A DNA stretch of 64,000 bases from Brevibacterium luteolum (GCF_013004595.1 NZ_JABEMC010000005.1:124001-188000), one strand, 5' to 3'; positions 1 through 59,557 are shown, counted from the first letter of the stretch. The notes: generated by a model from the sequence alone, not told the origin. Numbers and translations: made by a program.

Positions 1-1584
1 GCACATGCCGACAAGGATCGCGGCGATGAGCGAGATGATGGTGGTCAGCGCCTCGACTCCGCCGGAGGTGACGATCACCTCGATGGGTGAGAGCCCGATC
101 GCCCGACCGACCATGATGCCCAGGGCGATGCCGGAGACGATGCCGGCCAGCGTGGTGCCGACGGTGACGGCCTTGGCCGAGGCAGTGAGCGGGAAGTTCG
201 TCAGCGAGTCCTGCACCGCGGCGATGAGGCCGGCAGTCGGCAGCAGCAGCACAATGCCGGCGGCCACGAGGTACTGCGGAGCAGCGATGAACCCGAATGT
301 CCAGGCCGCCATTGCCAGCACGGTCGCAAACGTCGATTGGCCCATCGCGGTGAAGAACGGGGGCACGTCGAAGCGGGCGAGCAGCGCACCGAAGCGGTCG
401 ATGATGATCGCCATGCCGAAGCCGATGACCGCTGAGACTGCCGAGCCGCCGAGCAGCAGCACGAAGCAGGTCACGAGCATGCCCCAGGCCAGGGCGACGA
501 ACCAGCCGGCAAACGGCCGGCGCTGCTGGCGGATCGCGTCGATCCGCTCGCTGGCTTCGAGGTATTCGACCTTGCCGTCGACGATGTCGGTCACGAGCTT
601 GTGGACGGAGGCGAGCTTCGAGTAGTGGATCGACTCCTCGCGGCTGACGCGCATGACGTTGAGCAGCCGGCCCTCAGGGTCGGAGTAGTGCACATTGAGC
701 GAGTTCGAGGTCAGGTCGACTTCGACGGTCGGCAGGCCGAGCGCGGTGCAGGTGGCGATGACGGAGACCTCGACGTCGGCAGTCGGGGCGCCGGCGCGCA
801 GCATGATCCAGCCGATGTCGACGGCCAGCTCCATGATCTTGCGGGCTTCCTCCTCGCCCTTCGCCTGGCTCTGCACCGGCGCCTGATAGGGGGTGCCCTT
901 GAGGGTGGCGACGATCGGGATCGGGTCGGTCGCCGGCATCGAATCGCCGGTGATCTGCCCGACGGCCTTGCGGGCGAGCCGTTCGGCCATCCGCTTCGAC
1001 GAGGAGCCGGCGGCGTTGGTCTTCTCGACGATGCTGCGGGAGCTGCCGTTGCGGCGGAACCGCTGGGTGGAGGACGACCGACCCGTGCCGTAGCTGCCGT
1101 CGGCGCCGCGGGCGACCGGCGGGGTGAGCGCCTCGGACGGGTCGACCGGGTCCTGCTCCAGGCGTGAGGTCGCCGGAGTCGTGGCCGTTCCCGAGGCGGT
1201 GGCCGGGCTGGCAGCAGATGCCGAGCCGGCACGCCTGCCGTTCCTGCCGCGCGGAGCGCGGGTCTTGAGCTGTTTGTGCCCGCGCCGCCGGGCGGTCTGG
1301 GCCTTCTCCGTGGCCTCGGCGACGGTCTCTCGCGGGATCCCGCCGGTGGTGCGCAGTGCGGCGCCGGCGGTCGATCCGGTGTACTCGTTGGTGTTCAGCG
1401 GCTGGCTGGCGTCCGCGCCGAGATCGCTCGTTCCGGTCTGCCGTTCGGCTCCGGCTCGCCGCGCGGCTTCGCTCTCGTGGGAGTTGCGGCGTGCGCCATC
1501 GCCTGCCGCGGCACGTGATCCGTTGCTGCGGATGCGCGGGCGCAGCAGGCGCCGGCGCGGTGGGCGATCGCTGTCTTCTGCCAC
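1..1584 (-). CDS. thrE: Threonine/serine exporter family (ThrE) membrane protein; 3' end lies outside the window; long low-complexity N-terminal extension
   Basis: Manually translated minus-strand frame, absent from the ORF track because it runs off the edge: KIMELAVDIGWIMLRAGAPTADVE...HYSKLASVHKLV...followed by TM helices. GTG at 1584 follows AGAAGGA; start is approximate. Confidence 0.8.
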   Translation of the reverse strand, partial: MAEDSDRPPRRRLLRPRIRSNGSRAAAGDGARRNSHESEAARRAGAERQTGTSDLGADASQPLNTNEYTGSTAGAALRTTGGIPRETVAEATEKAQTARRRGHKQLKTRAPRGRNGRRAGSASAASPATASGTATTPATSRLEQDPVDPSEALTPPVARGADGSYGTGRSSSTQRFRRNGSSRSIVEKTNAAGSSSKRMAERLARKAVGQITGDSMPATDPIPIVATLKGTPYQAPVQSQAKGEEEARKIMELAVDIGWIMLRAGAPTADVEVSVIATCTALGLPTVEVDLTSNSLNVHYSDPEGRLLNVMRVSREESIHYSKLASVHKLVTDIVDGKVEYLEASERIDAIRQQRRPFAGWFVALAWGMLVTCFVLLLGGSAVSAVIGFGMAIIIDRFGALLARFDVPPFFTAMGQSTFATVLAMAAWTFGFIAAPQYLVAAGIVLLLPTAGLIAAVQDSLTNFPLTASAKAVTVGTTLAGIVSGIALGIMVGRAIGLSPIEVIVTSGGVEALTTIISLIAAILVGMC

Positions 1585-1677
1585 TGGTCCTTCTTGTCCG
1601 TCACACTGTGTCTGATCTCGGTTCTACCTGATGGATCTGATGCTCACGTGAACTGCCGCTGGACGAACGGTCGGTGC

Positions 1678-2952
1678 TCACGGCTCGTGGATCCGGGTGG
1701 GGCCGAACGGGTCGGCCACGAATGCCTCACCGCTGGCGAAATCGTGCGTGTACACGTGCCGGCCGGACACGTAGACGCTGGTGACACGCGCATCGAAGTC
1801 GAGCGGATGGGCGCTCCACTGCACGATATCAGCGTCGCGGCCCACCGCTAAGGATCCGACACGGTCATCGAGACCGAGGATCGCCGCCGGGTGGATCGTC
1901 ATCGCCTGCAGCGCAACCTCCGGGTCGAGTCCCTCGCGCACGGCGAACCGGGCCTGGTCGACGAAGAAGAAGATCGGCACCACCGGGTGGTCGGTCGTGA
2001 GCGCGAACCGCACCCCGGCCTTGGCATACGCTGCCGGGGTCGCCAGTGTGCGGTGGCGCAGCTCGACCTTCGACCGGGAGGTCATGAGCGGGCCGACGAT
2101 GACGTCGAGGCCCTTCTCTGCGATGTAGTCGGCGATGAGGTGGCCTTCGGTGCCGTGGTTGATGATGAGCCGGTAGCCGAACTCCTCGGCCAGCCGGATC
2201 GCGGTGGCGATGTCGTCGGCGCGGTGGCAGTGCTGATCCCACACGAGGTCACCGGTCAGCACATCGGCCAGCGTCTCCAGGCCCAGGTCCCGATCGAAGG
2301 GGACCCCCACCTCGGCGGCGGCCGCCCGGTTGGCGATGTAGTTGCGTGCCTTGACGAAGGCCTCGCGCTGGACCTTCACGACCCCGAGGCGGGTGGCCGG
2401 GGTCTGCTTGCGCTCGCCGTAGATGCGCTTGGGATTCTCGCCCATCGCCGACTTGACCGAGATGTCCTGGCTGATGAGCATCTCGTCGACGACCCGCCCC
2501 CAGGTCTTGAGAGCGGCGGTCCGCCCGCCGATCGGGTTGCCGGAGCCGGGCTTGACGACGGCGGTGGTGACGCCGCCGCGCAGCGCGTCCTTGAAGCCGA
2601 CGTCAGCGGGGTTGATCGCGTCGAGGGCGCGCAGGGCCGAACCGTCGGGGTCGGTCATCTCGTTGACGTCGTTGCTCTCGCCGCCCTCACCGTCCTCGTG
2701 GACGCCCATGTGGGCGTGGCTTTCGACGAAGCCGGGGGCGATGACCGTGCCCGAGGCGTCGATGACCTCGGCACCGGCGGGCACCTCGACCTCGGCGTCG
2801 GGGCCGATGGCGGTGATGGTGCCCTCGTCGAGGACGATCGTGCCGGAGGCGATCTCAGGTGCCGGGTTGCCCTCAGCGTCGGCGATCGGCAGCAGCCGGG
2901 CTCCGGTCAGGGCGACGGTGCGGCGCGGCGGAACGGCGACGGGCTGATACAT
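1678..2952 (-). CDS. Metal-dependent amidohydrolase family protein
   Basis: PGFVESHAHMG metal-binding HxH motif, HCHRADDI, TTDHPV, GSLAVGRDADIV. Confidence 0.85.
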   Translation of the reverse strand: MYQPVAVPPRRTVALTGARLLPIADAEGNPAPEIASGTIVLDEGTITAIGPDAEVEVPAGAEVIDASGTVIAPGFVESHAHMGVHEDGEGGESNDVNEMTDPDGSALRALDAINPADVGFKDALRGGVTTAVVKPGSGNPIGGRTAALKTWGRVVDEMLISQDISVKSAMGENPKRIYGERKQTPATRLGVVKVQREAFVKARNYIANRAAAAEVGVPFDRDLGLETLADVLTGDLVWDQHCHRADDIATAIRLAEEFGYRLIINHGTEGHLIADYIAEKGLDVIVGPLMTSRSKVELRHRTLATPAAYAKAGVRFALTTDHPVVPIFFFVDQARFAVREGLDPEVALQAMTIHPAAILGLDDRVGSLAVGRDADIVQWSAHPLDFDARVTSVYVSGRHVYTHDFASGEAFVADPFGPTRIHEP

Positions 2953-3086
2953 GGGGCTCCTTCACGGCTGTGCGGGCGGTGCGGCGGTGGTGCTGCTCGG
3001 CCCAAACGGTGCTGGGCCGGCAGGCCACCCCTCCACCCTAACGGGAACCGCTGGAGCGCACCGGTGACCTAGGCACCGGCGGTCGA

Positions 3087-3234
3087 GGCGAAAGTTTGTA
3101 GAGCTATTCATATTTTCAGAGCCTCCACATATGAACAGCTCCACAAACTTTTCCCTTGAAGCATCCGCCGGCGAAAGTGAGAAAAGTTATTCATGGAATC
3201 CAGACGTGAGACCGTGAATAACTTTGCAAACTTC
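3087..3234. repeat. Two AT-rich palindromic units in tandem (83-bp period)
   Basis: AAAGTTTGTAGAGCTATTCATAT...ATATGAACAGCTCCACAAACTTT (3091-3151) and GAAAGTGAGAAAAGTTATTCATGG...CCGTGAATAACTTTGCAAACTTC (3173-3234); both begin GGCGAAAGT. Confidence 0.75.
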
Positions 3235-3277
3235 TCCCACGCCTGCCCGCTGCCGCCGGCCTTGGTAGCGTGGACGC

Positions 3278-4318
3278 ATGAACAGGTACGTCATCATCGG
3301 GGCCGGCGCGATCGGCGGCACCCTCGCAGCGGCCGGCAGCGACGCCGGCCTGTCCATCACCGTCATCGCCCGCGGCGAGCACGCCGACGCCATCGCCGCC
3401 GGCGGCCTTGCGATGCGCACCCCGTCGGGCACCATCACCGCCCGCCCCGAGCTCGCCCGCTCCCCTGAAGAGGTCGAGCTGCGCACCGGTGACGTGCTCG
3501 TGCTGGCGACGAAGACGAACCAGGCGCTCACCGCCCTGCCGCAGTGGGCCGACCGCCCGGTGACCGGCGCCTCGGGCACGATGATCGGCACCGCCGGTGA
3601 GCTGCTGCCGATCGTCCTGCTGCTCAACGGCACCGAGGCCGCCCGGCAGGCACCCCGGCACTTCCGCACCGTGGTCGCGGCGACCGTGTGGATGCCGGCA
3701 CTGTTCCTCTCCCCCGGCGAGGTCATCACGCGCATGCAGCCGGATCACGGCGCCTATTTCGCCGGTCCCGTCACGGCCGATCCCGAGGCGGTGGCCACCG
3801 CCCGGCAGTTCGTGACCGATGCGGGCACGGCCGGGTTCGCCGCCGAGGCGCTCGGCAGTGCCGATGAGCTGTGGCCGCATATCTGGGGCAAGCTTCTGAC
3901 GAATCTGGCCAATGGGCTCGACTCGATCCTCGGGCCCGGGATCGAATACGGCGAGCTCAACGATGCGCTCAAGGCCGAGGCGAAGGCCGTCTACGCCGCA
4001 GCCGGGATCGACCACGTCGGCTCGAGTCCGAAGGCCTTCGACATCGAGGACCGGATCCAGATCGGCGGAGTCGACGGTGTCGAGGAGTTCGCCTCGTCGT
4101 CCTGGCAGTCGCTGGCCCGCGGCACCGGTTCGATCGAGACGGACTACCTGGGCGGGGAGATCGTGCGCATCGGCAACACACTCGGGGTGCCGGTGGGCAA
4201 GAACGCCTTCGTCATGCGGTGGTGCCGAGCGCTGGCGGCCGGCGACGACCTCGCCGGCCAGATCCCGGCCGACCCGCAGGAGCGGCTGGCAGTGCTCAGG
4301 CGCGTGATCCTCGACTGA
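3278..4318 (+). CDS. Ketopantoate reductase (ApbA/PanE) family protein
   Basis: IIGAGAIGG Rossmann motif, ATKT, LLNG, WGKLLTN, SSSWQSL...ETDYLGG; TAGCGT -10 box 6 nt before ATG (leaderless). Confidence 0.8.
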   Translation: MNRYVIIGAGAIGGTLAAAGSDAGLSITVIARGEHADAIAAGGLAMRTPSGTITARPELARSPEEVELRTGDVLVLATKTNQALTALPQWADRPVTGASGTMIGTAGELLPIVLLLNGTEAARQAPRHFRTVVAATVWMPALFLSPGEVITRMQPDHGAYFAGPVTADPEAVATARQFVTDAGTAGFAAEALGSADELWPHIWGKLLTNLANGLDSILGPGIEYGELNDALKAEAKAVYAAAGIDHVGSSPKAFDIEDRIQIGGVDGVEEFASSSWQSLARGTGSIETDYLGGEIVRIGNTLGVPVGKNAFVMRWCRALAAGDDLAGQIPADPQERLAVLRRVILD

Positions 4319-4365: not shown

Positions 4366-5871
4366 TCAGCTGCCGAGGGCGTTCTGGATCGGCCCGGAGA
4401 CGAAGTAGACGACGAACAGCGCCGCGGTGACGAACATGAGCGGGTGGACCTCAGGGGCCTTGCCGCGCAGCACCTTGATGACGACGTAGCTGATGAAGCC
4501 GGCGCCGATGCCGTTGGTGATCGAGTACGAGAACGGCATGAGGACGACGGTCATGAATGCCGGGATCGCGATCTCGACGTCGGCCCAGTCGATGCGCAGC
4601 ACCTGCTGCATCATGAGGAAGCCGACGAGCACGAGCGTCGGGGCGGCCGCCTCGGTCGGGATGACGGCGGCCAGCGGCGCGGCGACGATGGTGAGCAGGA
4701 ACATGAGGCCTGCCATGACGTTGGCCAGGCCGGTGCGCGCGCCCTCGCCGACGCCGACGGTCGACTCGATGAACCCGGAGTTCGACGACATCGAGCCCAG
4801 TCCGCCGCCGATCGCACCGAAGGCGTCAGCGACCATGACCCGCTTGGAGTTGGGGATCTCGCCGTCGGCGTCGACGATGTCGCCTTCCTTCGAGATCGCA
4901 ACCATGGTGCCGAGCAGGTCGAAGAAGTTCGCCAGCAGGAGTGTGAACACCGCCAGTGAGGCGGCGACGATGCCGATGTGCTGCCAGGAGCCGAGCAGGT
5001 TGAAGCTGCCGAGCAGCGACAGGTCGGGCAGACTCAGCCATTCCTGGTTGAGCGTCGGGACGGTCAGACCCCAGCCGTAGGGGTTGGCGATCTCGCCGTC
5101 GGCGCCGGTCTTCGGGCCGATGCCGACGATCGCCTCGACGATGAGGGCGAGCGCAGTCGCCCCGAGGATCGAGTAGAGGATCGCCCCGCGCACGCGGGCT
5201 GACCACATGACGAACAGGCCCAGCAGCGCGATGAGGAAGATGAGGACCGGCCACCCGAAGAGGAATCCGCCGGTGCCCAGCTCGAGAGCCGCGCCCTCGC
5301 CCTTGGAGAGGAAGCCTGCGTTCATCATGCCGATGAGCGCGATGAACAGGCCGATGCCCACGCTGATGGCGGTCTTGAGCTGGCCGGGTACGGCGTTGAA
5401 GATCGCCGCGCGGAAGCCGGTGAGCACAAGGATGAGGAGGATGACGCCTTCGATGACGACCAGGCCCATCGCATCAGCCCAGGTCATGCCCGGCAGCACG
5501 ACGATGCCGTACGTGAGGAAGGCTGAGAGGCCCAGCGAGGAGGACACGGCCATCGGGAAGTTGCCGACGACGCCCATGAGGATCGTGAGAATACCCGAGA
5601 CGAGCGAGGTCGCCGCGGCCACGGCCGGCAGGTTCGGTTCGGTGCCGCCGCCGAGGAAGTGGCCGGTGGAGTCCATCGAGGCGCCGATGATGAGCGGGTT
5701 GAGCACGACGATGTAGCTCATCGCGAAGAAGGTCGCGAAGCCGCCGCGGATCTCGCGGCCGATCGTCGAGCCGCGCTCGGTGATGTGGAAGAAGCGGTCG
5801 AGGGTCCCGCCGGTTCCGAAGAATCCGCCTGCCGCGCCCGAGGCGGTGGTGTCCTGGTGCTGTGTGCTCAC
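4366..5871 (-). CDS. NCS2/AzgA family purine nucleobase permease
   Basis: TIGREIRGGFATFFAMSYIVVLNPLI, FIESTVGVGEGARTGLA, MPFSYSITNGI; GTG start at 5871 preferred to the ORF-track start at 6027. Confidence 0.88.
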   Translation of the reverse strand: MSTQHQDTTASGAAGGFFGTGGTLDRFFHITERGSTIGREIRGGFATFFAMSYIVVLNPLIIGASMDSTGHFLGGGTEPNLPAVAAATSLVSGILTILMGVVGNFPMAVSSSLGLSAFLTYGIVVLPGMTWADAMGLVVIEGVILLILVLTGFRAAIFNAVPGQLKTAISVGIGLFIALIGMMNAGFLSKGEGAALELGTGGFLFGWPVLIFLIALLGLFVMWSARVRGAILYSILGATALALIVEAIVGIGPKTGADGEIANPYGWGLTVPTLNQEWLSLPDLSLLGSFNLLGSWQHIGIVAASLAVFTLLLANFFDLLGTMVAISKEGDIVDADGEIPNSKRVMVADAFGAIGGGLGSMSSNSGFIESTVGVGEGARTGLANVMAGLMFLLTIVAAPLAAVIPTEAAAPTLVLVGFLMMQQVLRIDWADVEIAIPAFMTVVLMPFSYSITNGIGAGFISYVVIKVLRGKAPEVHPLMFVTAALFVVYFVSGPIQNALGS

Positions 5872-8202: not shown

Positions 8203-8352
8203 AAGTGCTCCAGTCCTATTGGGTTGAGGGCGTGAGAGGTGTGGCTTCCAGCCTATCGCCGGTGCCCACAGGTTGAGACGACGATCGTGTAACAGTTCCC
8301 GCACATCGGTGCCGGCTCCAGCACCATCTCCCGCTGCCCTCCCCTCCCCACG

Positions 8353-8394
8353 CCCGAGGCGGGCGCACGGTGGACACCGCACGCCCGCCTCGGG
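8353..8394. terminator. GC-rich hairpin downstream of adhP, formed by two inverted copies of the CCCGAGGCGG motif
   Basis: CCCGAGGCGGGCG-N16-CGCCCGCCTCGGG. Confidence 0.55.
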
Positions 8395-8447
8395 AACGGG
8401 TCACGCACCGACCGGCCGGCAACGGCAGCCGGTCATTGCGGCTGGTC

Positions 8448-9619: not shown

Positions 9620-9657
9620 CCGCTCCCGAGGCGGTGGTCCCGGTCCCGAGGCGGTGG
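9620..9657 (+). repeat. Two tandem copies (20-bp period) of the dispersed CCGNKCCCGAGGCGGTGG motif
   Basis: CCGCTCCCGAGGCGGTGG-TC-CCGGTCCCGAGGCGGTGG. Confidence 0.85.
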
Positions 9658-10472: not shown

Positions 10473-12317
10473 CTAGCGAGATCTGCGGTCCTGCAGGCGG
10501 CAGTAGGCGAGCACATCGGCCCAGCGCAGCTGTCCCCATTCCGCACCTGCGGGCACGAGACCGGCCAGGGCCCGGCCGAGCAGCTGCCGGTCGAGGTCGG
10601 CATCGAGGGTGTCGACGAAGACGATCGCCCGCGGCCTCGCGAGTCCGCCGAGCATCTCGCGCACCGAGCTCATGAGGTCGACGGCCAGCTGGCGGGAGGC
10701 CGGTTCGCTCGTGACGACGGCGGCCCACACGCTGCGGCCGTGCTCGGGGTCGCGCACGGCGACCGCGCGGGCGGCGTCGACGAAGGGGTGGTCTTCGAGC
10801 AGCTGGCCGACGGCGGTGAGCGAGACGAGCTGGCCGGACACGGAGATGGCCGGGTCGATCCGGCCCTGAAAGGTGAAGCCGCCGTCGGGTTCGACGAGGA
10901 CGAGGTCGCCGCTGGCGAACCCGAGGTCCGGGCGGCGGGTGAAGGGCGCGCAGATGGTGTCCTCGGCGCCCGCTCCCGAGGCGGTGCTCACCATGCCGGG
11001 CAGGGGTGCGGTGACGATGAGCTCGCCGGTGTGGCCGGGTTCGACCGGCCGGTCATCAGCGTCGGTGACAGAGATGACCCCGCGGCCGAGCTGGCAGCTG
11101 CCGCCGTGGACGAAGACGATGCCGCTTAAGAGGATCTGGCCCCAGCCGTCGACGACCTCGCAGCCGTTTTCGACGAAGGCGCGCTGCATCCAGCGGCGCA
11201 GCTCGGGTTCGACCGGTTCGCCTGCGGTGACGACGCGGCACAGGGCGGCGACGCTGCCGGCGGCGGTGACGTCGTCGTGCCAGGAGCGCATCGTGCGCAT
11301 GACGGCCGGGGTGGTGACGAAGGTCGAGACGTCGTAGCGGTTCATGATCTCGAAGGCCCGCTGGTGGTGGGGCACGTCGAGGGTGCCTTCGTAGACGACG
11401 ATGGTGTCGCCGTACAGCAGCGGGCCGAGCAGGCCGTGCCACTGCGAGACCGCCCAGGAGACGTCGCCGGCACACCAGAAGGTGCCGCCGGTGCGCACCG
11501 CACCATGGAAGGCGGCGGCGGTGGCGAAGACGGCGGCTAAGGAGTGCCAGGTCGTCAGACTCGGAGCGCCGGGGGCTGCGAGGTGGCCGGCGCACAGGTG
11601 CGCGTCGATCGGCCGTCCGGAATCGACTGCGCTGGTCGCAGTCTCAACGTGGCGGGTGGCCGGGCGAGCAGCGTGGGTGAGGTCGTCGAACCAGTGGTCG
11701 CCGTGGAACCACGGCACGTTGAGGCCGGTGCGGCGGATGACGAGGGTGTGTTCGACGCTTTCAGCTGAAGCCAGGGCGTCATCGGCGCGGACCTTGAGCG
11801 GAATGACGGTGCCGTGCCGCCAGGCGCCGTCCTGGGTGATGAGCAGGCTCGGCTGCAGCTGAGCGAGCCGGGTGGCCAGGGCCTCGGCGGGCAGGGAGAT
11901 CGGCAGCATCGACCAGCGGGCGCCGATGTCGATGCAGGCCAGCACCGCGAACACCGTCTCGGGCAGCCAGCCGGTGTGGAAGGCCACCACGTCGCCGTCG
12001 GTGACCCCGCGGCCGCGCAGCGCGGTGGCGACGGCGGCAACTTCGGTTGCAAGTTCGGCGTAGGTGAAGGAGAGCCGTTCACCGGATTCGCCTTCCCAGT
12101 GCAGGGCGATCTTCGAGCCGTTGGCGCGCGCGTGGCGGGTGACGAGGTTGAAAAGCGGGTCGATCCGGCCACCGGGGAACCACTGCCCGCCATAGGGTCC
12201 GGGCTGCCAGACACTGCTGGGAGCAGCCGTCCAGTCGAGGAGGTCGATGATCGGCTGCCAGTCGGCGGTGAGCGTGTTCGGGTCGATGCCGGTGAAGGGC
12301 GCGGGTGCCTCAGCCAT
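10473..12317 (-). CDS. Acetyl-CoA-synthetase-like AMP-binding protein with degenerate catalytic motifs
   Basis: Acs fold markers WFPGG, ALHWEGE, LITQDGAWRHG, FWCAGDVSW, VYEG, SGD/GR; the P-loop and C-terminal Lys are missing. ATG at 12317 overlaps the 3' end of the IclR gene (the ORF-track extension to 12800 is spurious). Confidence 0.8.
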   Translation of the reverse strand: MAEAPAPFTGIDPNTLTADWQPIIDLLDWTAAPSSVWQPGPYGGQWFPGGRIDPLFNLVTRHARANGSKIALHWEGESGERLSFTYAELATEVAAVATALRGRGVTDGDVVAFHTGWLPETVFAVLACIDIGARWSMLPISLPAEALATRLAQLQPSLLITQDGAWRHGTVIPLKVRADDALASAESVEHTLVIRRTGLNVPWFHGDHWFDDLTHAARPATRHVETATSAVDSGRPIDAHLCAGHLAAPGAPSLTTWHSLAAVFATAAAFHGAVRTGGTFWCAGDVSWAVSQWHGLLGPLLYGDTIVVYEGTLDVPHHQRAFEIMNRYDVSTFVTTPAVMRTMRSWHDDVTAAGSVAALCRVVTAGEPVEPELRRWMQRAFVENGCEVVDGWGQILLSGIVFVHGGSCQLGRGVISVTDADDRPVEPGHTGELIVTAPLPGMVSTASGAGAEDTICAPFTRRPDLGFASGDLVLVEPDGGFTFQGRIDPAISVSGQLVSLTAVGQLLEDHPFVDAARAVAVRDPEHGRSVWAAVVTSEPASRQLAVDLMSSVREMLGGLARPRAIVFVDTLDADLDRQLLGRALAGLVPAGAEWGQLRWADVLAYCRLQDRRSR

Positions 12318-13095
12318 TGCCGATGCTCCTTCCGCAGGAGACGGCGGTGCGCTCGAGCGCCGCAGCCGCCTTGCGCACGTGGGCCTCGTCGGCTCCGGCG
12401 GGCACATCGGCGGCCAGGGCTGCCACGACTGCGGCTTCGGCGTCGCGCAGCGGCACAGCGACTTCGTCGACGTGGTCGGCGACGATGGCCGGCAGGTGGA
12501 TGTGGTTCGCACTCGCCCACTGCTGACGGTGGGTTTCTGCCAGTTCCACGGTCTCAGGTGAGGCGCCGGCGAGGACCTCAGCCCACACCTCGGGTGCGGC
12601 GTGGGCGGCGAGCACCCGCCCGGCGGCGGTGTCGAGGGCCGGCAGTGCGCGCGGTGAGCGACGGAAGGGCCCGCGGTCATCACCGTCGACCTGGTCGATG
12701 CACATGACCTCTCGGCCGGCGAGCACATAGACGCTGATCGTGGCGGCGAGCTGGTTGCGCAGCGCCACGACGAAGGGGGCGAGCGCGGCGAGGATCGCAC
12801 TGCGCGCCAGGTAGTGCTTCGACAGGCGGGTGAGCTGCGGGCCGAGGCCGTAGCGGGAGGTCGCCGGGTCCTGCACGGCGTAGTCGGCCTGCACGAGTGA
12901 GCGCAGCAGCCGGTGCACGGTGGGCACCGACATGCCCGAGCGGGCGGCGAGGTCCGTCAGGTGGTGCAGCGGCGGGCCCTCGGCAAGCAGGTCGAGCAGC
13001 CTGACCGCATTGCGGATGGTGCCGAGGCCCCCACGGGCTGAGCCGTTGCCGCTGGTGCTGCCATTGGCTTCGTCGCCATTGCCCTCACCGGCCAT
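12310..13095 (-). CDS. IclR family transcriptional regulator
   Basis: TIRNAVRLLDLL...LTDLAARSGMSVPTVHRLLRSL...YGLGP wHTH; ALDTAAGRVLAAH in the effector domain. Confidence 0.88.
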   Translation of the reverse strand: MAGEGNGDEANGSTSGNGSARGGLGTIRNAVRLLDLLAEGPPLHHLTDLAARSGMSVPTVHRLLRSLVQADYAVQDPATSRYGLGPQLTRLSKHYLARSAILAALAPFVVALRNQLAATISVYVLAGREVMCIDQVDGDDRGPFRRSPRALPALDTAAGRVLAAHAAPEVWAEVLAGASPETVELAETHRQQWASANHIHLPAIVADHVDEVAVPLRDAEAAVVAALAADVPAGADEAHVRKAAAALERTAVSCGRSIGNG

Positions 13096-22523: not shown

Positions 22524-22643
22524 CGGCTCCCCTCCTGCCTGCTGACTGTCGACCGGATCAGGCTATCCGATGCACCCAAGCCAGCCACCGCCTCGGGCGC
22601 GGCCCCTGGAGCAGACCCAGCGTGGCGCATCACACACCCCCTT

Positions 22644-26495: not shown

Positions 26496-26569
26496 GACTG
26501 GGCCCTTCGGTGCCGACCAGAACCGACATCAGGATATCGGACCGCAGGCAGGTGTCAGGGCATGAGAAG

Positions 26570-27707: not shown

Positions 27708-27846
27708 GTTTCCTCACGTGATGTCGGTCGCTGCGCGGGCTTCGGCGCAGGCGCTTACTGGTTCGACAGCTATCTTAGATCCTCGGCCATCCTACGCGGT
27801 TCAGCAGTTCTTCAGGGGGATCCGCTCCCGAGGCGGTGGCTGGGTC

Positions 27847-34610: not shown

Positions 34611-35981
34611 GTGAAGATCCACGCCGATCAGTTCGCTGAGCTCGTCGAGACGCTGCCGTGGGATGTGCCGCTGCAGCGGTGGAAGCCCGAGCTGCTCATC
34701 GGCCTGCCACGCGGCATCTCCCGGCATGTGGTGCGCTTCGTCGAGTTCGAAGGCACGATCCTAGCGGTCAAGGAGACCCAGGATGCGATCGCAGTGCGCG
34801 AATACGAACTGCTCACCGCACTCGCCGATCTCGACGCGCCTGCCGTGCGGCCGCTGGGGTACGTCACCGGGCGAACCGATGCCGACGGCCAGCCGCTGCC
34901 TGGGGCGCTGCTGACTCCGCATCTGTCGTATTCGCTGCCGTTCCGCGATCTGTGCGGTTCCCAGGTGCCCCCGCACATGGCCGATCTGCTCGTCGACGCC
35001 CTTGCGGTGCTCATCGTCAGGCTGCACCTCGTGGGGTTCTTCTGGGGTGATGTGTCACTGTCGAACACGCTGTTCCGCCGCGATGCTGACGCGCTGGCCG
35101 CCTATCTCGTCGACGCCGAAACCGGGGAGCTGCACGACTCGCTGTCAGCCGGGCAGCGCAGCCACGACCTCGATCTGGCGCGCACGAACATCGCCGGGGA
35201 GTTCCTCGACCTGCAGGCGGGTGGCCTGGCCGACCCGGATGTCGATCCGATGGCGATGAGCAACCGGCTGTGCGAACGCTATGACGAGCTGTGGGCCGAG
35301 CTCACCACCGTTGAGGCGTTCAACATGTACGAGCGCTGGCGCATCGACCAGCGCATCGAACGGCTCAACGAGCTCGGCTTCGATTTAGGCGAACTGACGG
35401 TCACGACCGACCTCGACGGCGTCACCACGCGCATCGAACCCAAAGTCGTGGCACCGGGGCACTTCCAGCGCCGGCTCAGACGGCTGACCGGGATCGAGGC
35501 GGAGAAGCAGCAGGCCCGCCGGATGCTCAACGACCTCGATGTCTACCGGGCGGCGAATGGGCTCGATGATGAGGACGAGGCAATCGTCGCCGAGCGCTGG
35601 CTGGCTGATGTCTACCGGCCGGTGCTCGAGGCGATCACCGATGAGTACAGCGGCCGGCTGGAGCCGCCGCAGGTGTTCCACGAGTTCCTCGACCACCGCG
35701 CGGAGATGGCCGAGGCCGCTGGCCGGGATGTCTCCACGCCCGAGGCGGTGGCCGCCTACCGCGACGAGAAGCTCGCCCATTACCCGCACGAGGCCCACCT
35801 GCTCCGCGATCCGGACACCGCGGTGCTGCGGCGGCTCGCAGAGGCAGAATTAGCGCAGGCAGACCCTGCTTCGGCAGAATCAGCGGAGACAGACCCTGAA
35901 CCGGCAGAGTCCGGGCATATGCAACCGGAGACACCGGAACCGCCGGCTGCGGCGGATGAGACGAGAGAAGGACCCCGATGA
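34611..35981 (+). CDS. DUF4032-domain kinase-like protein
   Basis: LPRGISRHVVRF, HLSYSLPFR, GFFWGDVSLSNTLFRRDA, YLVDAETGELH; GTG after GGAGG. Confidence 0.82.
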   Translation: MKIHADQFAELVETLPWDVPLQRWKPELLIGLPRGISRHVVRFVEFEGTILAVKETQDAIAVREYELLTALADLDAPAVRPLGYVTGRTDADGQPLPGALLTPHLSYSLPFRDLCGSQVPPHMADLLVDALAVLIVRLHLVGFFWGDVSLSNTLFRRDADALAAYLVDAETGELHDSLSAGQRSHDLDLARTNIAGEFLDLQAGGLADPDVDPMAMSNRLCERYDELWAELTTVEAFNMYERWRIDQRIERLNELGFDLGELTVTTDLDGVTTRIEPKVVAPGHFQRRLRRLTGIEAEKQQARRMLNDLDVYRAANGLDDEDEAIVAERWLADVYRPVLEAITDEYSGRLEPPQVFHEFLDHRAEMAEAAGRDVSTPEAVAAYRDEKLAHYPHEAHLLRDPDTAVLRRLAEAELAQADPASAESAETDPEPAESGHMQPETPEPPAAADETREGPR

Positions 35982-38584: not shown

Positions 38585-38635
38585 CGATCCGCTGAAATGG
38601 CGGACACTCAAGCCCCGGCGGGCACAGCACGTGGG

Positions 38636-38753
38636 CGTGCACTTCGTGCCGACTCGAGCACCGTCGATTCCACACGAGAAGCACGCTGCAAGCGCCGAAC
38701 CCGTGCATTTCGTGTCGAATCGAGAGGCGTCGGTTCCACACGAACGACACGCT
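38636..38753. repeat. Two palindromic direct-repeat units of a second family, 66-bp period
   Basis: CGTGCACTTCGTGCCGACTCGAG...TTCCACACGAGAAGCACGCT and CGTGCATTTCGTGTCGAATCGAG...TTCCACACGAACGACACGCT. Confidence 0.75.
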
Positions 38754-38783
38754 CAGGTCGCCGTGCAGGTCAAGCCGTCGGCG

Positions 38784-39831: not shown

Positions 39832-41286
39832 TCAGCCCTTGAGGCTGTAACGGTAGCCGCCGGGGGTGTCCTCCAGCTGCACGCCGGCGCGGGTGAGCAG
39901 ATCGCGGATCTCATCTGCCCGCGCATAGTCCTTGGCCTGCTTGGCGGCCAGCCGCTCGGTGGCCAGTTCGTCGACGAGCACGCGCAGCCCGGCCTCTGCC
40001 GCACTGTCCGCGCCCGAGGCGGTGGTCCAGTTGGCAGCCAGCGGGTTGACGCCGAGCACATCGAGCATGAGCTCGAGTTCGGCCACCGTGCGGATGAGCG
40101 CCCCTCGGTCGGGGTCCCCGGACTCCAGCAGCCGGTACCCCTCACCAACGGCACTGAACGCAACCGAAAGCGCCTTGGGCACCGACAGGTCGTGGTCCAT
40201 CGCGGCGGCGAAGTCGGCCGGCACATCGAAGGCCCGGCGGCGATAGCCGTCCTCCACCTCGGGAGCCGGCGGAGCGTCTTCGCCGAGGATCTCTCTGGCG
40301 CGGGTGAGGAAGTTCTCGAAGCGCTCGAGCGCATTCTCCTGCTTGGCGACCAGTTCTTCGGAGAACTCGAGCACTGAACGGTAGTGCGCGGTCGAGAGCG
40401 CATAGCGCACCGCCAGCGGATTGGAGGCGGCGAAGAGATCATGGGCGAAAACGGAGTTGCCCAGGGACTTCGACATCTTGTCCCCGCCGATGTTGAGCAG
40501 TCCGGAGTGCATCCAGATCCGGGCGAAAGGATCGCCGGCGGCATTCGACTGCGCGCGCTCGTTCTCATGGTGGGGGAAACGCAGGTCGAGCCCGCCGCCG
40601 TGAATGTCGAACTCCGCACCGAGGTACTTCGTCGACATCGCCGAGCACTCGATATGCCAGCCCGGCCGGCCGCGTCCCCACGGCGACGGCCACGAGGCGG
40701 TGAGCGGATCGCCGTCCTTGTGCGCTTTCCACAGCGCGAAGTCCCGCGGGTCCCTCTTGCCGCGCAGCGGGGCGTCATCGGCTGCGGCCATGTCGTCGAG
40801 CTGCTGGTTCGTCAGCGAACCGTAGTCCGGCCAGGAGCGCGCATCGAAGTAGACATCAGCGGAGCCGTCGAGGGCCGGATAGGCGTGTCCGGCGGCGATG
40901 AGACGGTCGATGAGCTCGATCATCTCCGTCATGTGCCCGGTGGCCAGCGGCTCATAGGTCGGGCGCAGCACGCCGAGGGCGTCGTATGCGGCGGTGAATT
41001 CCTGGAAGTAATGGTAGGCGTGGGCCCACCACGGGCGGGACTCCTCGACCGACTTCGCCAGGATCTTGTCGTCGATGTCGGTGACATTGCGCACGAAGGT
41101 GACGTCATAACCGCGGTAGAGCAGCCACCGGCGCAGCTGATCGAACACGACAGCGGTGCGCATGTGGCCGATGTGGGGCGAACCCTGCACGGTGGCCCCG
41201 CAGACGTAGAGCCCGGCATGTCCGTCGGTGACGGGGGTGAAGGGTTCGAGGCGGCGCGTGGCGGTGTTGAAAAGCTGTATGGTCAC
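39832..41286 (-). CDS. cysS: Cysteine--tRNA ligase
   Basis: YVCGATVQ, HIGH, GRPGWHIEC, FPHHENE, KMSKS. Confidence 0.96.
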   Translation of the reverse strand: MTIQLFNTATRRLEPFTPVTDGHAGLYVCGATVQGSPHIGHMRTAVVFDQLRRWLLYRGYDVTFVRNVTDIDDKILAKSVEESRPWWAHAYHYFQEFTAAYDALGVLRPTYEPLATGHMTEMIELIDRLIAAGHAYPALDGSADVYFDARSWPDYGSLTNQQLDDMAAADDAPLRGKRDPRDFALWKAHKDGDPLTASWPSPWGRGRPGWHIECSAMSTKYLGAEFDIHGGGLDLRFPHHENERAQSNAAGDPFARIWMHSGLLNIGGDKMSKSLGNSVFAHDLFAASNPLAVRYALSTAHYRSVLEFSEELVAKQENALERFENFLTRAREILGEDAPPAPEVEDGYRRRAFDVPADFAAAMDHDLSVPKALSVAFSAVGEGYRLLESGDPDRGALIRTVAELELMLDVLGVNPLAANWTTASGADSAAEAGLRVLVDELATERLAAKQAKDYARADEIRDLLTRAGVQLEDTPGGYRYSLKG

Positions 41287-44624: not shown

Positions 44625-45313
44625 GCGCACGCATTGACCACCTGGAGACATCCGGCACGTTCTCGCTTGACGGGGGCACCTGGGATGTCGACAACAACGT
44701 CTGGATCGTCGGCGACGACTCCGAGGTCGTCGTCATCGACCCGGCCCACTCGCCTGAGCAGGTCGCCGAGGCCGTCTGCGACCGGAAGGTCACCGCGATC
44801 CTGCTGACCCACGGGCATGACGACCACATCCGCGCGGTCATCGAGACGCAGAAGCTGCTGGGCAACCCGCCGATCCACCTCAACCCCGAGGACATGGTCC
44901 TGTGGGAGATGGTCTACCCGGATGCCAAGCCGGAGGAGAAGCTCGAAGACGGGCAGACGATCACCGTCGGCGACGTCACGCTCACGGCCCTGCACACCCC
45001 GGGCCACTCCCCTGGTTCCACGTGCTTCTACATCGCTGATGGGGTCGCCGTTCCCGAGGTGGCCGCGGAGGCCGCCGGAAAGGTCAGGACGGGTGCGAAC
45101 AACCCGATCCTCATCTCCGGTGACACCCTGTTCGAAGGCGGACCGGGTGCCACGGGCCGGTCGTATTCGAGCTTCGACACGATCATCGAGTCGATCTCGA
45201 CCCGTCTGTTCCAGCTGCCGGAGGAGACCGTCGTGCTCACCGGCCACGGCCCGGCCACGGCGATCGGGCTGGAGAAGCCGCACCTGCAGGAGTGGATCGA
45301 CCGCGGCGAATGA
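44621..45313 (+). CDS. MBL-fold hydrolase (Rv2260/Fmh-like partner of MscR)
   Basis: [39 protein letters not shown]. Confidence 0.88.
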
Positions 45314-46655: not shown

Positions 46656-47153
46656 TCAGCTGCGCTGGACCACGACGGCGGTCGCGATCGCTGCGATCCC
46701 CTCGCCGCGGCCGGTGAGGCCGAGCCCATCAGTCGTCGTGCCGGAGACTGCGACCGGTGCACCGGCGGCAGCCGAGAGCACATGCTGGGCCTCGTCCCGG
46801 CGCGTGCCGATCTTGGGCCTGTTGCAGATCGCCTGCACGGCGATGCTGCCGATCTCGAACCCGGCTGCGCGCACGAGCCGGGCGGCCTCCGTCAGGAGCT
46901 CCGCTCCCGAGGCGCCGGCGAGTTCCGGCCGGTCGACGCCGAAGTGCGCGCCCAGATCCCCGATGCCGGCGGCTGTGAAAAGCGCATCACAGCAGGCATG
47001 GGCGACGGCATCGGAATCCGAATGTCCCTCAAGCCCGACTTCGCCTTCCCACAGGAGACCGGCGAGCCACATCGGCCGGCCGGGATCCTTCGAGAAGGCA
47101 TGGACGTCGGTGCCGATGCCCACCCGCGGCAGGATCGGAGAGTTCTCGCTCAT
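46656..47153 (-). CDS. ispF: 2-C-methyl-D-erythritol 2,4-cyclodiphosphate synthase
   Basis: [34 protein letters not shown]. Confidence 0.95.
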
Positions 47154-47881
47154 CGGTTCTGCCCTCCAGCAGTCGCGTCTTCCAGCAGCAGTTCGGCGAT
47201 GCGCATATCGAGCGGGTGGGTGATCTTCAGCGCCCGCTCATCACCGGCAACCGCCCGCACGTCGTGGCCGAGGCGTTCGGCGAGCATCGCGTCATCCGTG
47301 GCAGTGATCGGGTCGCGGGCCTGCAGGGCGTGTGCCTCTTCGAGCACCTCGACGGCGAAGCCCTGCGGGGTCTGCACACGCCTGAGCTGCTCGCGGTCGA
47401 TGTCGCCGATGACGCGTTCGTCTCCGGCGGCCGCGCATGGGCTGCGCAGCGTCTCGACGCGTTTGATCGTATCGGTCACCGGCAGCACCGGCACGACTGC
47501 CTGGGCACCGGCGCCCAGGGCATCGGTGACGCGGGTGAACACCTCGGGAGGTGTCAGGCAGCGGGCGGCGTCGTGGACGAGCACGGCTTCGATGCCAGGA
47601 TCGGAGCGCTGGGCGGCTACCAGGGCTGCACGCACGCTGGCGACGCGATCAGCGCCACCGGCCACCACCTCGGCGGCGGTGCCGAGGGTGTCCCGTGCGG
47701 AGGCGAGGAACGCCTCGGGAACGGCGACCACGATATGATCGGCGACTCCCGAGGCGTGTGCACCGCGAACACAGTGCTCAAGCAGGGTCGTTCCGGCCAG
47801 TTCGGCAAATGCCTTCGGAATGCCGGCTCCCAGGCGGGTGCCAGAGCCGGCGGCCGGGATGACGATGCAGGTTCTTAGGAT
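47150..47881 (-). CDS. ispD: 2-C-methyl-D-erythritol 4-phosphate cytidylyltransferase; probable non-canonical ATC start
   Basis: The frame extends upstream of the ORF-track start with (I)[38 protein letters not shown] and KITHPLD follow. Start position is inferred. Confidence 0.88.
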
Positions 47882-54055: not shown

Positions 54056-54071
54056 GCGATGCTGGTGCGGT

Positions 54072-55460: not shown

Positions 55461-56699
55461 CTACGCTGTGGCACCGACACCGGACAGCCCATTGAGCACA
55501 GTGTCGACACAGTGCTCCCAGGTGAACCGGGCGGCCTGACGCACGGCTGCAGCAGCCATCTGCGCCCGGGTGTCGTCATCACCAAGCAGCCTGGCGATCG
55601 CCTGCGCCCACACCTCGGGGTCGTGCGATTCGAGGAGGACGCCGGTGGCGGGTGTGACGATGTGGCGCAGCCCGCCGACGGCGGCGGCGATGACCGGCGT
55701 GCCGCAGGCGGCGGCCTCGGCGGCGGCGAAGCCGAAGGACTCGCTGCGGCTGGGCACGAGCACCGCATCGGCGGCCCGGTACCAGTCGGCCAGCCGCTCG
55801 GCCGGTTCCGGGGGCAGCACAGTGATCGCCGGTTCGGCTGTGGCCGCCTCGGCCATCGCCCCGGCGGTCTGGGTGTCGGTGCCACTGGCGGCCCCGAGCA
55901 TGTACAGCCGCGCGGACGGCAGCTGATCGCGCAGCTCTTGCATCGCTGCGATCGCGACATCGGTGCCCTTGATGTGCTGCATCCGCCCAACGGCCAGCAA
56001 CACGGGGTCTGTTCCGAGCCCGAGGCGGTGGCGGGCGGCGTGACGGTCGCCGGGTGTGTAGACGGTGTGGTCGATGCCGGGCACCGCGGCGATGACGCGT
56101 GCCGGTGGCGTACCGAGCAGGTCGATGATGTCGCTGCGTTCGGCAGGAGTGTTGGCGATGGCGAGGTCGGCAGCAGCCGCGATGCGCGGTTCGGCTGCCA
56201 GTCGGTCGGCCGGTTCGCGCCGGGTGCCGGTGTCGCGGTCCTTGACCGCGCCGATCGTGTGGAAGGACACGACGAACTTCGCGCCCGTACCGTGGGTCTC
56301 GCGCATCCGCAGGACGGCGGCGGCCGAGATCCAGTAGTGCGCCCAGATGACCTGGCAGTCCGCGAGCTGCGGCAGCTCGGCCAGCGCGGAGGCGATTCCA
56401 TCGAGGTGTGTCAGCAGGTCCTCTTTGGTCCGGGCGGGGGTATGCAGCCGGTGGACCCGCACGCCGGGCCCGAGGTGGGAGCTGGCTGCCCAGGTGATCG
56501 GCGCCTCGGGCGCGGGGTCAGGGCGCGCAGTTGCCTCATCGACACTCAGTGCGGGGTCGGCGGTGATGATCTCGACCTGGTGACCGCGGGCTGCCAGTTC
56601 GGTGGCTGTGGCGCGGACGTAGACATTGAGCCCGCCGGCATCGCCCTGCCCGGGCTGGGCGTCGGGGGCGGTGTGCAGGCTGATGAGCGCGATGTTCAC
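55461..56699 (-). CDS. mshA: GT4 glycosyltransferase, D-inositol-3-phosphate glycosyltransferase (MshA)
   Basis: SLHTAPDAQPGQGDAGGLNVY, HYWIS, PSRSESFG..AAEAAACGTPV; synteny with ybjN-gpmA. Confidence 0.8.
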   Translation of the reverse strand: MNIALISLHTAPDAQPGQGDAGGLNVYVRATATELAARGHQVEIITADPALSVDEATARPDPAPEAPITWAASSHLGPGVRVHRLHTPARTKEDLLTHLDGIASALAELPQLADCQVIWAHYWISAAAVLRMRETHGTGAKFVVSFHTIGAVKDRDTGTRREPADRLAAEPRIAAAADLAIANTPAERSDIIDLLGTPPARVIAAVPGIDHTVYTPGDRHAARHRLGLGTDPVLLAVGRMQHIKGTDVAIAAMQELRDQLPSARLYMLGAASGTDTQTAGAMAEAATAEPAITVLPPEPAERLADWYRAADAVLVPSRSESFGFAAAEAAACGTPVIAAAVGGLRHIVTPATGVLLESHDPEVWAQAIARLLGDDDTRAQMAAAAVRQAARFTWEHCVDTVLNGLSGVGATA

Positions 56700-57843: not shown

Positions 57844-57847
57844 GCCC

Positions 57848-58192: not shown

Positions 58193-58902
58193 CGGCGACC
58201 ACCGCCTCGGGAGCGGAGCGCTGCCCAGATGCCGAACGGCACCAAGGCGAGCAGCCCGGAGACCGGGCCGAGGCCCAGGGGCAGCAGCGGGGTGAGAGCG
58301 AAGGCGATGGCCATGCCGAGCAGAGCGGCCGGGCCGGTGATGCGGTGTTTGAGGTCGGAGGTGATGAGGGCCAGCAGGATGACGGGGAAGGCGGCGTCGA
58401 CGCCGAGGGCGTCGGCATCGACGATGCGGCCGAGCAACTGGCCGGTGGCTGCGCCGATCGGCCAGCAGATGAAGATCGCCACACCCATGATGAGGAATCC
58501 GTGCCAGCGGGCGCGTTCGGTGGACTGAGCGCGGGAGAAGGCGACGGTTTCGTCGTTGACGAGATGGGCGGCCAGCAGCGAGCGGCCGTCCTGCGGGATC
58601 CACGCGCCCACGGTGAGGCCGAAGGGCAGGTTGCGGGTGTTGACGAGCAGGCCGGCGAGCACAGCGAGCATCGGTGCTCCGCCGGCGGCGACGACGCCGA
58701 CGAAGGTGAGTTCGGCCGCCCCGCCGAGGGCGAAGACGGCGAGCATGACGGTCTGCCAGACCGGGAAGCCGGCGGCCCCGGAGATCGCGCCGTAGGAGAC
58801 TGCGACGGCGAAGATCGTCAGGGTGATGACCGCGATGGTGCGGTAGGCGCTGGCGGGCAGTGCGCTGCCGGCGGGTGTCGGGACCATGAGCACATGGTGC
58901 AC
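58189..58902 (-). CDS. azlC: AzlC family branched-chain amino acid exporter
   Basis: GGAAE, LVNTRN, HLVNDETVAF, GVDAAFP. Confidence 0.85.
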   Translation of the reverse strand: MHHVLMVPTPAGSALPASAYRTIAVITLTIFAVAVSYGAISGAAGFPVWQTVMLAVFALGGAAELTFVGVVAAGGAPMLAVLAGLLVNTRNLPFGLTVGAWIPQDGRSLLAAHLVNDETVAFSRAQSTERARWHGFLIMGVAIFICWPIGAATGQLLGRIVDADALGVDAAFPVILLALITSDLKHRITGPAALLGMAIAFALTPLLPLGLGPVSGLLALVPFGIWAALRSRGGGRR

Positions 58903-58913
58903 GAGTCCTCAGC

Positions 58914-58929
58914 GTTCGTCAAAACGAAC
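58914..58929. promoter_or_regulatory. Palindromic operator for the adjacent XRE-cupin regulator (inferred)
   Basis: GTTCGT-CAAA-ACGAAC in the short divergent intergenic region. Confidence 0.6.
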
Positions 58930-58951
58930 AGATGTCCATTACGCTGTGTGC

Positions 58952-59503
58952 ATGACCTCGTCCCCGCTGCCCCAGATCGCTGCCGCCCTGCGCCGTGAGC
59001 GCGCCCGCCTCGGGCTGAGCCTGTCGGAGGCAGCTAAGCGCGCAGAGGTGTCGAAGTCGACGCTCTCCGGCCTGGAGTCCGGCACCGGCAATCCGAGCAT
59101 CGAGACGATGTGGGCTCTGGCGACGGCCTACCAGGTGCCGCTGGCCCAGCTGCTCGATCCACCCGCTCCCGATGTGGCGGTCATCCGGCGCGGGGAGCCT
59201 CCGCAGCTGGCCTCGGGGTCGGCGGACTATGCTGCGGTGCTGCTGAGCTCGTGCCCGCCGCATGCGCGCCGGGACCTGTATCTCATCACAGCCGAGCCGG
59301 GTTCGGTCAAGCATTCCGAGCCGCATGAGGCTGGCACGGTCGAGCACGTCATCATCGGCTCCGGATCGGCCCGGGCGACGGTGGCTGACGAGACGATCGA
59401 GCTGGGCGCCGGTGACTACCTGCGCTATCCCGGCGATGCCGCCCACAGCTTCGAGGCACTCGAGCCCGGCACGCTGGCCGTGTTCGCCGTGCAGACCGGA
59501 TGA
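58952..59503 (+). CDS. XRE-HTH plus cupin transcriptional regulator
   Basis: SLSEAAKRAEVSKSTLSGLESGTGNPSIET; HEAGTVEH..GDY..YPGD..HSF; TACGCT -10 box 6 nt before ATG. Confidence 0.88.
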   Translation: MTSSPLPQIAAALRRERARLGLSLSEAAKRAEVSKSTLSGLESGTGNPSIETMWALATAYQVPLAQLLDPPAPDVAVIRRGEPPQLASGSADYAAVLLSSCPPHARRDLYLITAEPGSVKHSEPHEAGTVEHVIIGSGSARATVADETIELGAGDYLRYPGDAAHSFEALEPGTLAVFAVQTG

Positions 59504-59557
59504 GCAGACAGGGCCGGGTGAGCCAGCGGTCCAGGTGAGCACCGCCTCGGGCGCGGG

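Follow-up and report, generated by a model that had tools for sequence, protein, structure and literature searches.

The 64,000-nucleotide stretch of Brevibacterium luteolum DNA analysed here (NZ_JABEMC010000005.1:124001-188000, hereafter the window) carries, on both strands and both within and between genes, copies of a word whose invariant part is a 14-bp arm, CCGNNCCCGAGGYG, followed by a more variable tail, commonly GTGG. A sequence-only reading of the window had described an 18-bp dispersed motif and had considered it either a genome-wide DNA signal or a short interspersed element. Our analysis of the whole query genome (G000; 2.97 Mb, 67% guanine plus cytosine [GC], 21 contigs), together with a comparison set of 69 Brevibacterium genomes and 374 genomes of other Actinomycetales families, supports a genome-wide signal that is held at the DNA level: the word is abundant, conserved at the level of single letters, without polarity, missing from foreign DNA and built as a common core with dialects. 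The 18-mer itself is not the basic unit, since positions 15-19 form a lineage-specific tail on the arm. As gene positions were taken from our own self-trained caller (2,545 genes, 85.5% coding), gene start sites are approximate. For one protein encoded in the window, B. samyangense and B. salitolerans supply the best named hits.

Sites in the window

All twelve exact copies of the 13-mer originally noticed in the window were recovered with the same coordinates and strands, and none of 100 dinucleotide shuffles yields any; two 12-mer versions are also present, at 10975 on the plus strand and at 59539-59551 on the minus strand. CCG stands five bases upstream in 13 of these 14 copies, the exception being 35734, which has CCA, and five of the 14 are intergenic according to our own gene calls. 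The nine coding copies do use four reading phases, named here after the encoded peptides (PEAV in three, TASG in four, HRLG and RGGG in one each), as had been reported. Genome-wide, however, the phases are far from evenly used, with TASG (81) and PEAV (29) accounting for 110 of 116 exact coding copies.

Arms followed by GTGG are found on the plus strand at 1185..1202 (antisense in a ThrE-family exporter gene, TASG phase, in its low-complexity N-terminal part), where the relative G083 has a copy in the same place and G066 has duplicated, decayed copies; at 3777..3794 (sense in a ketopantoate reductase gene, PEAV phase), where outgroups are colinear but lack the arm; and at 5832..5849 (antisense, codon 8 of a xanthine/uracil permease gene), where the arm is kept in G066, G083 and G072. 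Two tandem copies with a 20-bp period lie in intergenic DNA at 9620..9657 and correspond to a single copy slightly upstream in G066 and G083. A further intergenic copy at 27822..27839, 7 bp past the stop codon of a Ser/Thr kinase gene, is kept in all four genomes of the clade described below, its tail being CCGG in G072. The copy at 40008..40025, antisense in the cysteinyl-tRNA synthetase gene, overwrites colinear outgroup sequence and changes amino acids, and that at 56014..56031, antisense in HRLG phase in a glycosyltransferase gene, has an arm core that persists in four species, where one of three tails follows it; we take this gene to be MshA-like. A near-arm beginning with CCA and followed by GTGG (35734..35751, plus strand) is read in the sense direction in a DUF4032 gene and is colinear with outgroups. 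On the minus strand, arm plus GTGG occurs at 22585..22602, in the intergenic DNA between divergently oriented crcB-like and yceI-like genes; at 34011..34067, in the linker of a LacI regulator, where the copy (34011-34028) stands beside a degenerate two-armed 33-mer (34035-34067) and where G066 and G083 have 27-bp tandem duplications; and at 58199..58216, at the end of azlC in RGGG phase, where GTGG is followed by TCGCC, the inner part of a second arm. The last site is kept in G066 and G072, with one change in G083.

The tail GTGC is present at 10970..10987 (plus strand, antisense within the gene of an AMP-binding enzyme, with the same sequence in G066 and G083) and at 59539..59556 (minus strand, intergenic, 1 bp past a stop codon), where TCACCT follows. 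Arms with other tails were located at 12586..12599 (minus strand, in an IclR regulator gene), 28605..28618 (plus strand, in the Ser/Thr kinase gene whose stop codon adjoins 27822..27839) and 45048..45061 (plus strand); an arm at 46901..46914 (plus strand), in the ispF gene (YgbB family), carries CCGG, and one at 47711..47724 (minus strand), near the start of ispD, precedes a partial inverted arm at a distance of 5 bp. A two-armed 33-bp form, consisting of an arm, a 5-bp spacer and an inverted arm with two mismatches, lies at 2745..2777 in an amidohydrolase gene and had escaped the original list. Inverted arm pairs with longer spacers are found at 8348..8399 (24-bp spacer, 48 bp past the stop codon of an alcohol dehydrogenase gene), where the pair forms a full, terminator-like hairpin (z -5.9), at 56464..56515 (24-bp spacer, within the glycosyltransferase gene that holds 56014..56031) and at 62640..62690 (23-bp spacer, within the aminopeptidase N gene).

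The window holds other features besides these. The sole match in an Rfam scan of it is a tRNA. AT-rich imperfect palindromic intergenic repeats at 3087-3239, unrelated to the word, have more copies in G066 and G083, and a second intergenic repeat family (38476-38772) has scattered copies in G066, G072 and G083. A small gene with a TfoX-N domain lies beside a tRNA-Thr (26570-26642) at 26160-26642, adjoining a break of synteny in relatives.

Abundance, geometry and distribution of the word

Genome-wide, the 13-mer occurs 219 times, exceeding the predictions of Markov models (0.6-1.7 at orders 0-5, rising to 7, 20 and 63 at orders 6, 7 and 8), and codon shuffling likewise predicts far fewer copies, exact 18-mers numbering 116 in genes versus 2-5 in three synonymous-codon shuffles. 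These counts are contrary to the outcome that the sequence-only reading had named as its refutation. The arm alone is present in 735 copies, one per 4 kb, of which 528 (72%) are coding, compared with 25, 32 and 41 in three synonymous shuffles, and 204 are intergenic; arm plus exact GTGG has a density of one per 14 kb. GTGG follows the arm in 212 cases and a version with one difference in 173, and a weaker tail, YYRSST, extends over positions 19-24. Among 274 one-mismatch 18-mers, positions 2 and 8-12 vary 0-2 times each and positions 6, 13, 16 and 18 vary 30-69 times; A10 is unchanged in all of them, and T24 mirrors A10. Sub-types with linked positions exist among the copies. The intergenic share of copies, 28-37%, contrasts with the 14.5% of the genome that is intergenic. 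Both of the preferred phases, TASG and PEAV, place motif positions 2, 5, 8, 11, 14 and 17 at third codon positions; an artefact of codon or peptide usage is ruled out by the synonymous shuffles, by the intergenic share and by the background level in the 374 other Actinomycetales. The hexamer CCGAGG alone is no commoner in the query genome (292 per 100 kb) than in G067 (376). Five degenerate copies are clustered at C1:186028-186177, 7 kb from a tad locus, between genes that are presumably Crp-like and endonuclease III-like.

The arms have a defined geometry. Head-to-head pairs separated by exactly 5 bp number 35, versus 0-7 for same-phase spacers of 8-35 bp, save for a spacer of 23 bp (17 pairs; a spacer of 24 bp gives 7). 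These 5-bp pairs are mostly in genes (27 of 35) and their spacer sequence is freely variable; the degenerate positions of the two arms are not complementary beyond chance (6 of 35 versus 4.3 by permutation), compensatory pairing is absent, and positions 13 and 21 do not covary. Intergenic pairs at spacers of 22-24 bp, on the other hand, are often true hairpins after stop codons. The small hairpin that the CCG and CGG ends of a single copy had been proposed to close found no support, since positions 4 and 15 show no covariation and single copies (z 0.15 and -0.40) fold like their shuffles. Intergenic tandem copies have a period of 20 or 21 bp in 21 cases and any other period in at most three. 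A second arm scoring at least 9/12 accompanies 73 of the 735 arms, so that about 90% are one-armed, and the one-armed sites show enrichment only of the second arm's inner five bases (CRCCT, positions 20-24). The two-armed pattern gives 21-51 hits in each of the four clade genomes, nine in G010, six in G077, 1-3 in 13 further genomes of the genus and none in 50. The constant 5-bp spacer and the tandem repeat at 20-21 bp point to a reader, by inference a protein, that engages duplex DNA in pairs, either two-fold or head-to-tail.

The 17-mer ending in GTG occurs 161-261 times in four of the 69 Brevibacterium genomes (G000, G066, G083 and G072) and 0-6 times in the other 65, as in the 374 outside genomes. 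The four form a supported clade in a one-gene tree of 25 genomes, in which long-branch warnings apply to the deeper forks, and all share the same consensus with the tail GTGG. The arm alone is enriched in 18 of the 69 genomes (37-763 copies), the other 51 having 2-23 and the outside genomes a background of 0-33. Composition may be part of the cause in G067, G078 and G091 (57-79 arms; G067 has about 70% GC); it is an unlikely cause in five small genomes with 37-55 arms, because their sampled loci have 58-59% GC. Named records containing the word, found in a scan of 3 of 64 database parts, include those of B. otitidis, B. gallinarum and B. sp. p3-SID960.

Outside the clade the core is kept and the tail differs. 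In G022 it is mostly CCCY: of 268 sites 100 were listed, and in most of these the tail starts with CCC. The word ending in CCCTG falls in B. litoralis at 48 of the 80 loci listed, and in those loci CCC also follows 12-13 of 15 other arms that were not part of the query. G077 has mixed CGGG and CCC tails, and G032 has T at position 13 in most sites. Scanning k-mers over 1.0 Mb of G067 and over 235 kb of G017 revealed a weak related word in the latter and no second strong word. Stretches of G066, G072 and G067 also contain arrays of 30-75 identical repeats, which we assume to be CRISPR-like. At least 120 IMG/VR stretches have a match (52 of 64 parts scanned), with one match each in the 80 listed, and no annotated phage matched beyond chance; the phage scan says little, because no phage of this clade was identified. 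In the literature covered, which excludes subscription papers and supplements, no description of the word came to light, and none of an uptake sequence from Brevibacterium.

Evolution and chromosomal placement of the sites

In 564 aligned orthologous genes, four-fold degenerate sites within the motif changed 7, 11 and 5 times in comparisons with G066, G083 and G072, versus 34.6, 25.2 and 32.3 changes expected from matched codons. Arms without GTGG behave alike (8 versus 30, 5 versus 15 and 8 versus 28), so that synonymous positions of the motif change 2-6 times less than matched codons, while flanking four-fold sites evolve at a normal rate (330 changes versus 327 expected). Among the arms that could be aligned within the clade, 117 of 139, 63 of 72 and 48 of 72 stand at the same place in the relative, a further 16, 21 and 36 having been dropped for poor flanks. 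Insertions and deletions cluster at the sites (7 of 53, 9 of 39 and 10 of 37, against a background of 1-2%), and of the 17 arms that fall within insertions, 12 stand no more than 45 bp from a partner arm, the units being 12-108 bp long; extra copies are mainly local, mostly tandem, duplications. One such case concerns the gene at C18:90848, where the motif lies in a loop at about codon 134 and a 72-bp insertion in G066 adds two in-frame copies; we take this gene to be TsaD-like.

Comparison with outgroups was possible for 67 coding sites, orthologs being available for 59 of 297 motif-bearing genes. Colinearity was observed at 29 sites, and at only three of these does the outgroup sequence show no more than two mismatches. 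Of the other sites, 23 are close to a gap, 14 belong to terminal extensions and one is a clean insertion. In B. litoralis, 16 of 21 alignable coding sites lie in gapped stretches. Outgroup colinearity and in-place sharing indicate that the sites were written over existing sequence, often with a change of amino acid, and are now held.

Six parS sites and ParB put the origin of replication on contig C12, and a pattern search put dif on C15 at 297.8 kb; the contig order follows 50 anchors in G067, with one contig of G066 as a bridge, and the skew changes sign near dif. Contigs C2, C19 and C21 are placed roughly, and C4-C11, C13 and C14 are unplaced. No leading/lagging bias was found in the query genome (strand counts 158:163 and 146:147), nor any polarisation to replichores of the kind seen with Chi, FtsK-orienting polar sequences (KOPS) or architecture imparting sequences (AIMS). 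Within 400 kb of dif, sites resembling arm plus GTGG fall to 7.0 per 100 kb versus 15.2 elsewhere (p 7e-9) and other arms to 9.6 versus 12.6; coding arms stand at 14.5 versus 23.3 and intergenic arms at 35.7 versus 51.0 (p 0.08). This thinning is 1.6- to 2.2-fold; arms are present, and their density is normal right at dif. Gene orientation switches about 100 kb from dif (C15:200-298k), which may mark an old inversion.

The deepest gap is a 380-kb zone lying 125-505 kb to one side of dif, whose limits were chosen after the data had been seen; it contains six GTGG sites versus 27.4 expected and 38 other arms versus 37.1. The gap is repeated in G066 (6.0 versus 20.6 GTGG sites per 100 kb), and in G083 the zone was sampled over 37 kb only. 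Protein conservation was rejected as its cause (mean identity 70.5 versus 72.1), and after matching for gene conservation one site in 76 kb compares with 49 in 441 kb. Trees of G000, G066 and G072 conflict for 31 of 111 genes in word-rich regions and for 5 of 83 in the word-poor zone, counts in which neighbouring genes are not independent. Mosaic exchange takes place among the four species sharing the GTGG tail. At C17:159-190k, C1:231-236k and C18:66-77k the closest relative switches between G066 and G072, in tracts of interspecies recombination of about 5-10 kb. Acquired DNA lacks the word: a 41-kb prophage (C1:43-84k, recognised by eye and by its integrase) has no arm versus 10.2 expected, seven small contigs have none versus 12, and genes with low GC at third codon positions have 8.5 arms per 100 kb versus 23.

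What the word may be for

We tentatively favour, at a little under an even chance, the reading that the arm with its lineage tail is a dispersed self-recognition signal, read by a protein during DNA uptake or in the recombination that follows. Uptake and recombination would favour fragments that carry a good copy; better matches would then spread by point change where proteins tolerate it, in linkers, termini and spacers, and also by local tandem duplication, and a change in the reader would retune the preferred tail and so give rise to dialects. The estimate has two grounds. A core with dialects, sites that overwrite sequence where change is tolerated, a preference for certain frames and a lack of copies in acquired DNA make up the signature described for DNA uptake sequences (DUS) and uptake signal sequences (USS) (PMC2397512, PMC2817400, PMC3630211), and the newer tail is rarest in the region with the least recent exchange. 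These papers report conserved DUS in permissive places (PMC2397512), preferred reading phases (PMC2817400) and Neisserial DUS dialects around one core (PMC3630211), the last being the parallel that we draw for lineage tails on a conserved core. Like DUS, which are read by ComP, and USS, the word comprises hundreds of dispersed copies on both strands, coding and intergenic, far above codon-aware nulls and without replication-strand bias, and some inverted pairs are terminator-like. Unlike them, it resides in an actinobacterial host with Tad/Flp instead of type IVa pili, is an unrelated GC-rich word of 14-24 bp with lower density and few terminator pairs, has a fixed-spacer two-armed form inside genes and is thinner near dif. 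We do not class it as a member of DUS/USS, because its uptake role is a prediction, no receptor was found and the frequent terminator pairs of DUS/USS are lacking.

The query genome has an intact competence gene set of the Micrococcus type: comEC and dprA are intact, as are the ATPases of two tad loci, which have pilins, and an intact FtsK-family gene directly follows one of these loci. Four further labels, comEA, comF, comM and an rcpC/tadZ locus, are ones that we presume from the sequences. The set matches that of Micrococcus luteus, in which transformation needs tad loci and an adjacent FtsK-like gene according to passages of PMC8467076 that contain nothing on sequence specificity. G022, a genome of the CCCY dialect, has a second DprA-family match (C15:8227-8880, in a 606-codon frame). 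A third, higher-scoring T2SSE-family ATPase is found at G083:C56:32608-33468 and in 13 other genomes, patchily and without tracking the motif, and is absent from G000, G066 and G072.

Several observations weigh against an uptake role. Word-poor Brevibacterium are equally equipped (comEC and tad ATPases in 69 of 69 genomes, a TadG-like pilin in 67 of 69), and dprA and the FtsK-like gene occur in them too. No tad pilin is net basic beyond +2 or specific to the clade, and no clade-specific candidate reader emerged among the ParB family, tyrosine recombinases, tad pilins, the FtsK family and DprA, nor, among the entries listed, in a set of 239 basic soluble proteins; this search covered about a third of one outgroup genome. 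In a polarised test, 8 of 14 ancestral exact sites changed on a terminal branch, which is uninformative as decoys behaved alike, and moves toward the consensus were no commoner than for decoys. G072 has no clear GTGG gap in the word-poor zone (10.0 versus 12.6 per 100 kb), its other arms being the thinner ones there (8.8 versus 19.3); C1:169-222k, though rich in the word, shows no trace of recent exchange with G072. At gene level, arm density does not correlate with recent exchange (rho -0.09 to 0.00), whereas DUS are enriched in conversion fragments (PMC2397512). DUS and USS density is, as we understand it, about one per kb, several-fold above that of the arm. About half of DUS/USS stand in terminator pairs, compared with a handful among the 204 intergenic arms here, and the preprint that gives this share describes sequence-specific uptake only for Neisseriaceae and Pasteurellaceae (10.1101/2025.10.24.684340). 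A fixed 5-bp spacer within genes, finally, is no less compatible with a cytoplasmic dimer than with a pilin.

The main rival view is that the arm is the site of a dimeric, sequence-specific chromosome-organising protein of the Noc, SlmA or nucleoid-bridging type, binding the 33-bp two-armed site or arm plus tail and packing head-to-tail every two helical turns, with sites thinner around the terminus and kept by selection on chromosome handling. We judge this unlikely, yet the constant spacer, the tandem repeat every two turns and the lower density near dif give it real weight. The 35 pairs, whose spacer sequence varies and whose arms are not complementary at their degenerate positions, the intergenic period of 20-21 bp, the recurrence of the two-armed form in G066, G072, G083, G010 and G077 and the survival of the deepest gap after gene-conservation matching speak for it. 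Noc, SlmA and MatP sites are likewise dispersed, present in genes and uneven along the axis from origin to terminus, and they are read with two-fold symmetry, as the word may be. Plasmid iteron and operator pairs of RepE/RepA likewise combine a word repeated head-to-tail at about two helical turns with a shorter fixed-spacer inverted pair, but the arm is dispersed over the whole chromosome. Against such an organiser, some nine-tenths of arms have no partner, the thinning is about two-fold instead of an exclusion and its gap lies to one side of a normally dense dif, 51 of the 69 Brevibacterium genomes get by on 2-23 copies, and some 700 sites are, as far as we are aware, well above Noc/SlmA site numbers. 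No Noc-like ParB paralog was found (one ParB in G000, G066, G072 and G067; a weak second match in G083) and no shared extra tyrosine recombinase; TetR-type SlmA was not searched for, so the Noc/SlmA gene negative rests on the ParB search.

A non-polar internal signal for recombination or repair (nicking, loading or methyl-directed repair), HIP1-like in effect, in which biased conversion fixes better matches and causes tandem duplications whatever the route of DNA entry, would account for the clustering of insertions and deletions at sites, for the partner arms within insertions and for the invariance of A10 mirrored by T24. It appears improbable to us, since the substitution rate in flanks is unaltered, CCGAGG is not enriched over G067, a site of 18-24 bp would be long for a methyltransferase and no candidate enzyme was identified, methyltransferases not having been searched for. 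The gapped sites and terminal extensions seen against outgroups, the gapped stretches of B. litoralis and the linked sub-types could instead suggest a miniature inserted element spread by a transposase, whether of the repetitive extragenic palindromic (REP) or miniature inverted-repeat transposable element type or a protein-coding palindrome. This is largely refuted and very improbable: most sites are shared in place in the clade, many are colinear with outgroups, clean insertion was seen once, insertions have neither fixed length nor target duplication, synonymous positions are actively conserved, and the Y1 transposase profile PF01797 matches none of the 69 genomes, the same profile matching 6 of 14 controls. 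REP and bacterial interspersed mosaic elements with their REP-associated tyrosine transposases are similarly short and clade-specific, with some inverted pairs and tandem copies just past stop codons, but the word is 72% coding, its single copies form no hairpin and its sites either overwrite existing sequence or stand at the same place in relatives. With cyanobacterial HIP1, Chi and KOPS the word has over-representation and DNA-level conservation inside genes in common, yet it is a non-palindromic unit of 14-18 bp, is much longer, is not a short palindrome and is not oriented to replication. Of the four analogies offered by the sequence-only reading, those with Chi/KOPS-like signals (no strand bias), HIP1 (form) and REP-like elements thus fail, and those with uptake sequences and with nucleoid-protein sites both remain.

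The self-recognition reading can be put more boldly, as the first DNA-uptake signal outside Proteobacteria, with Tad/Flp competence, a two-fold arm reader, dialects that gate gene flow, and a drive that would have rewritten hundreds of linkers (TASG/PEAV here, QGASG in B. litoralis); in this full form it is possible but more doubtful. If true, it would add a third sequence-specific uptake system, in a Gram-positive phylum, and would imply that self-recognition words arise repeatedly. The genus would offer a direct test of the drive model, since word-rich, dialect-shifted and word-poor culturable species have the same competence genes, and confirmed uptake would provide a tag for genetic work in Brevibacterium. 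Were the reader a chromosome protein, the word would reveal a sequence-specific organiser in actinobacteria, whose division and nucleoid regulators are largely unaccounted for according to PMC7968930 and 10.1101/732925. On either reading, the word explains the recurrent TASG and PEAV peptides in the proteomes of these bacteria.

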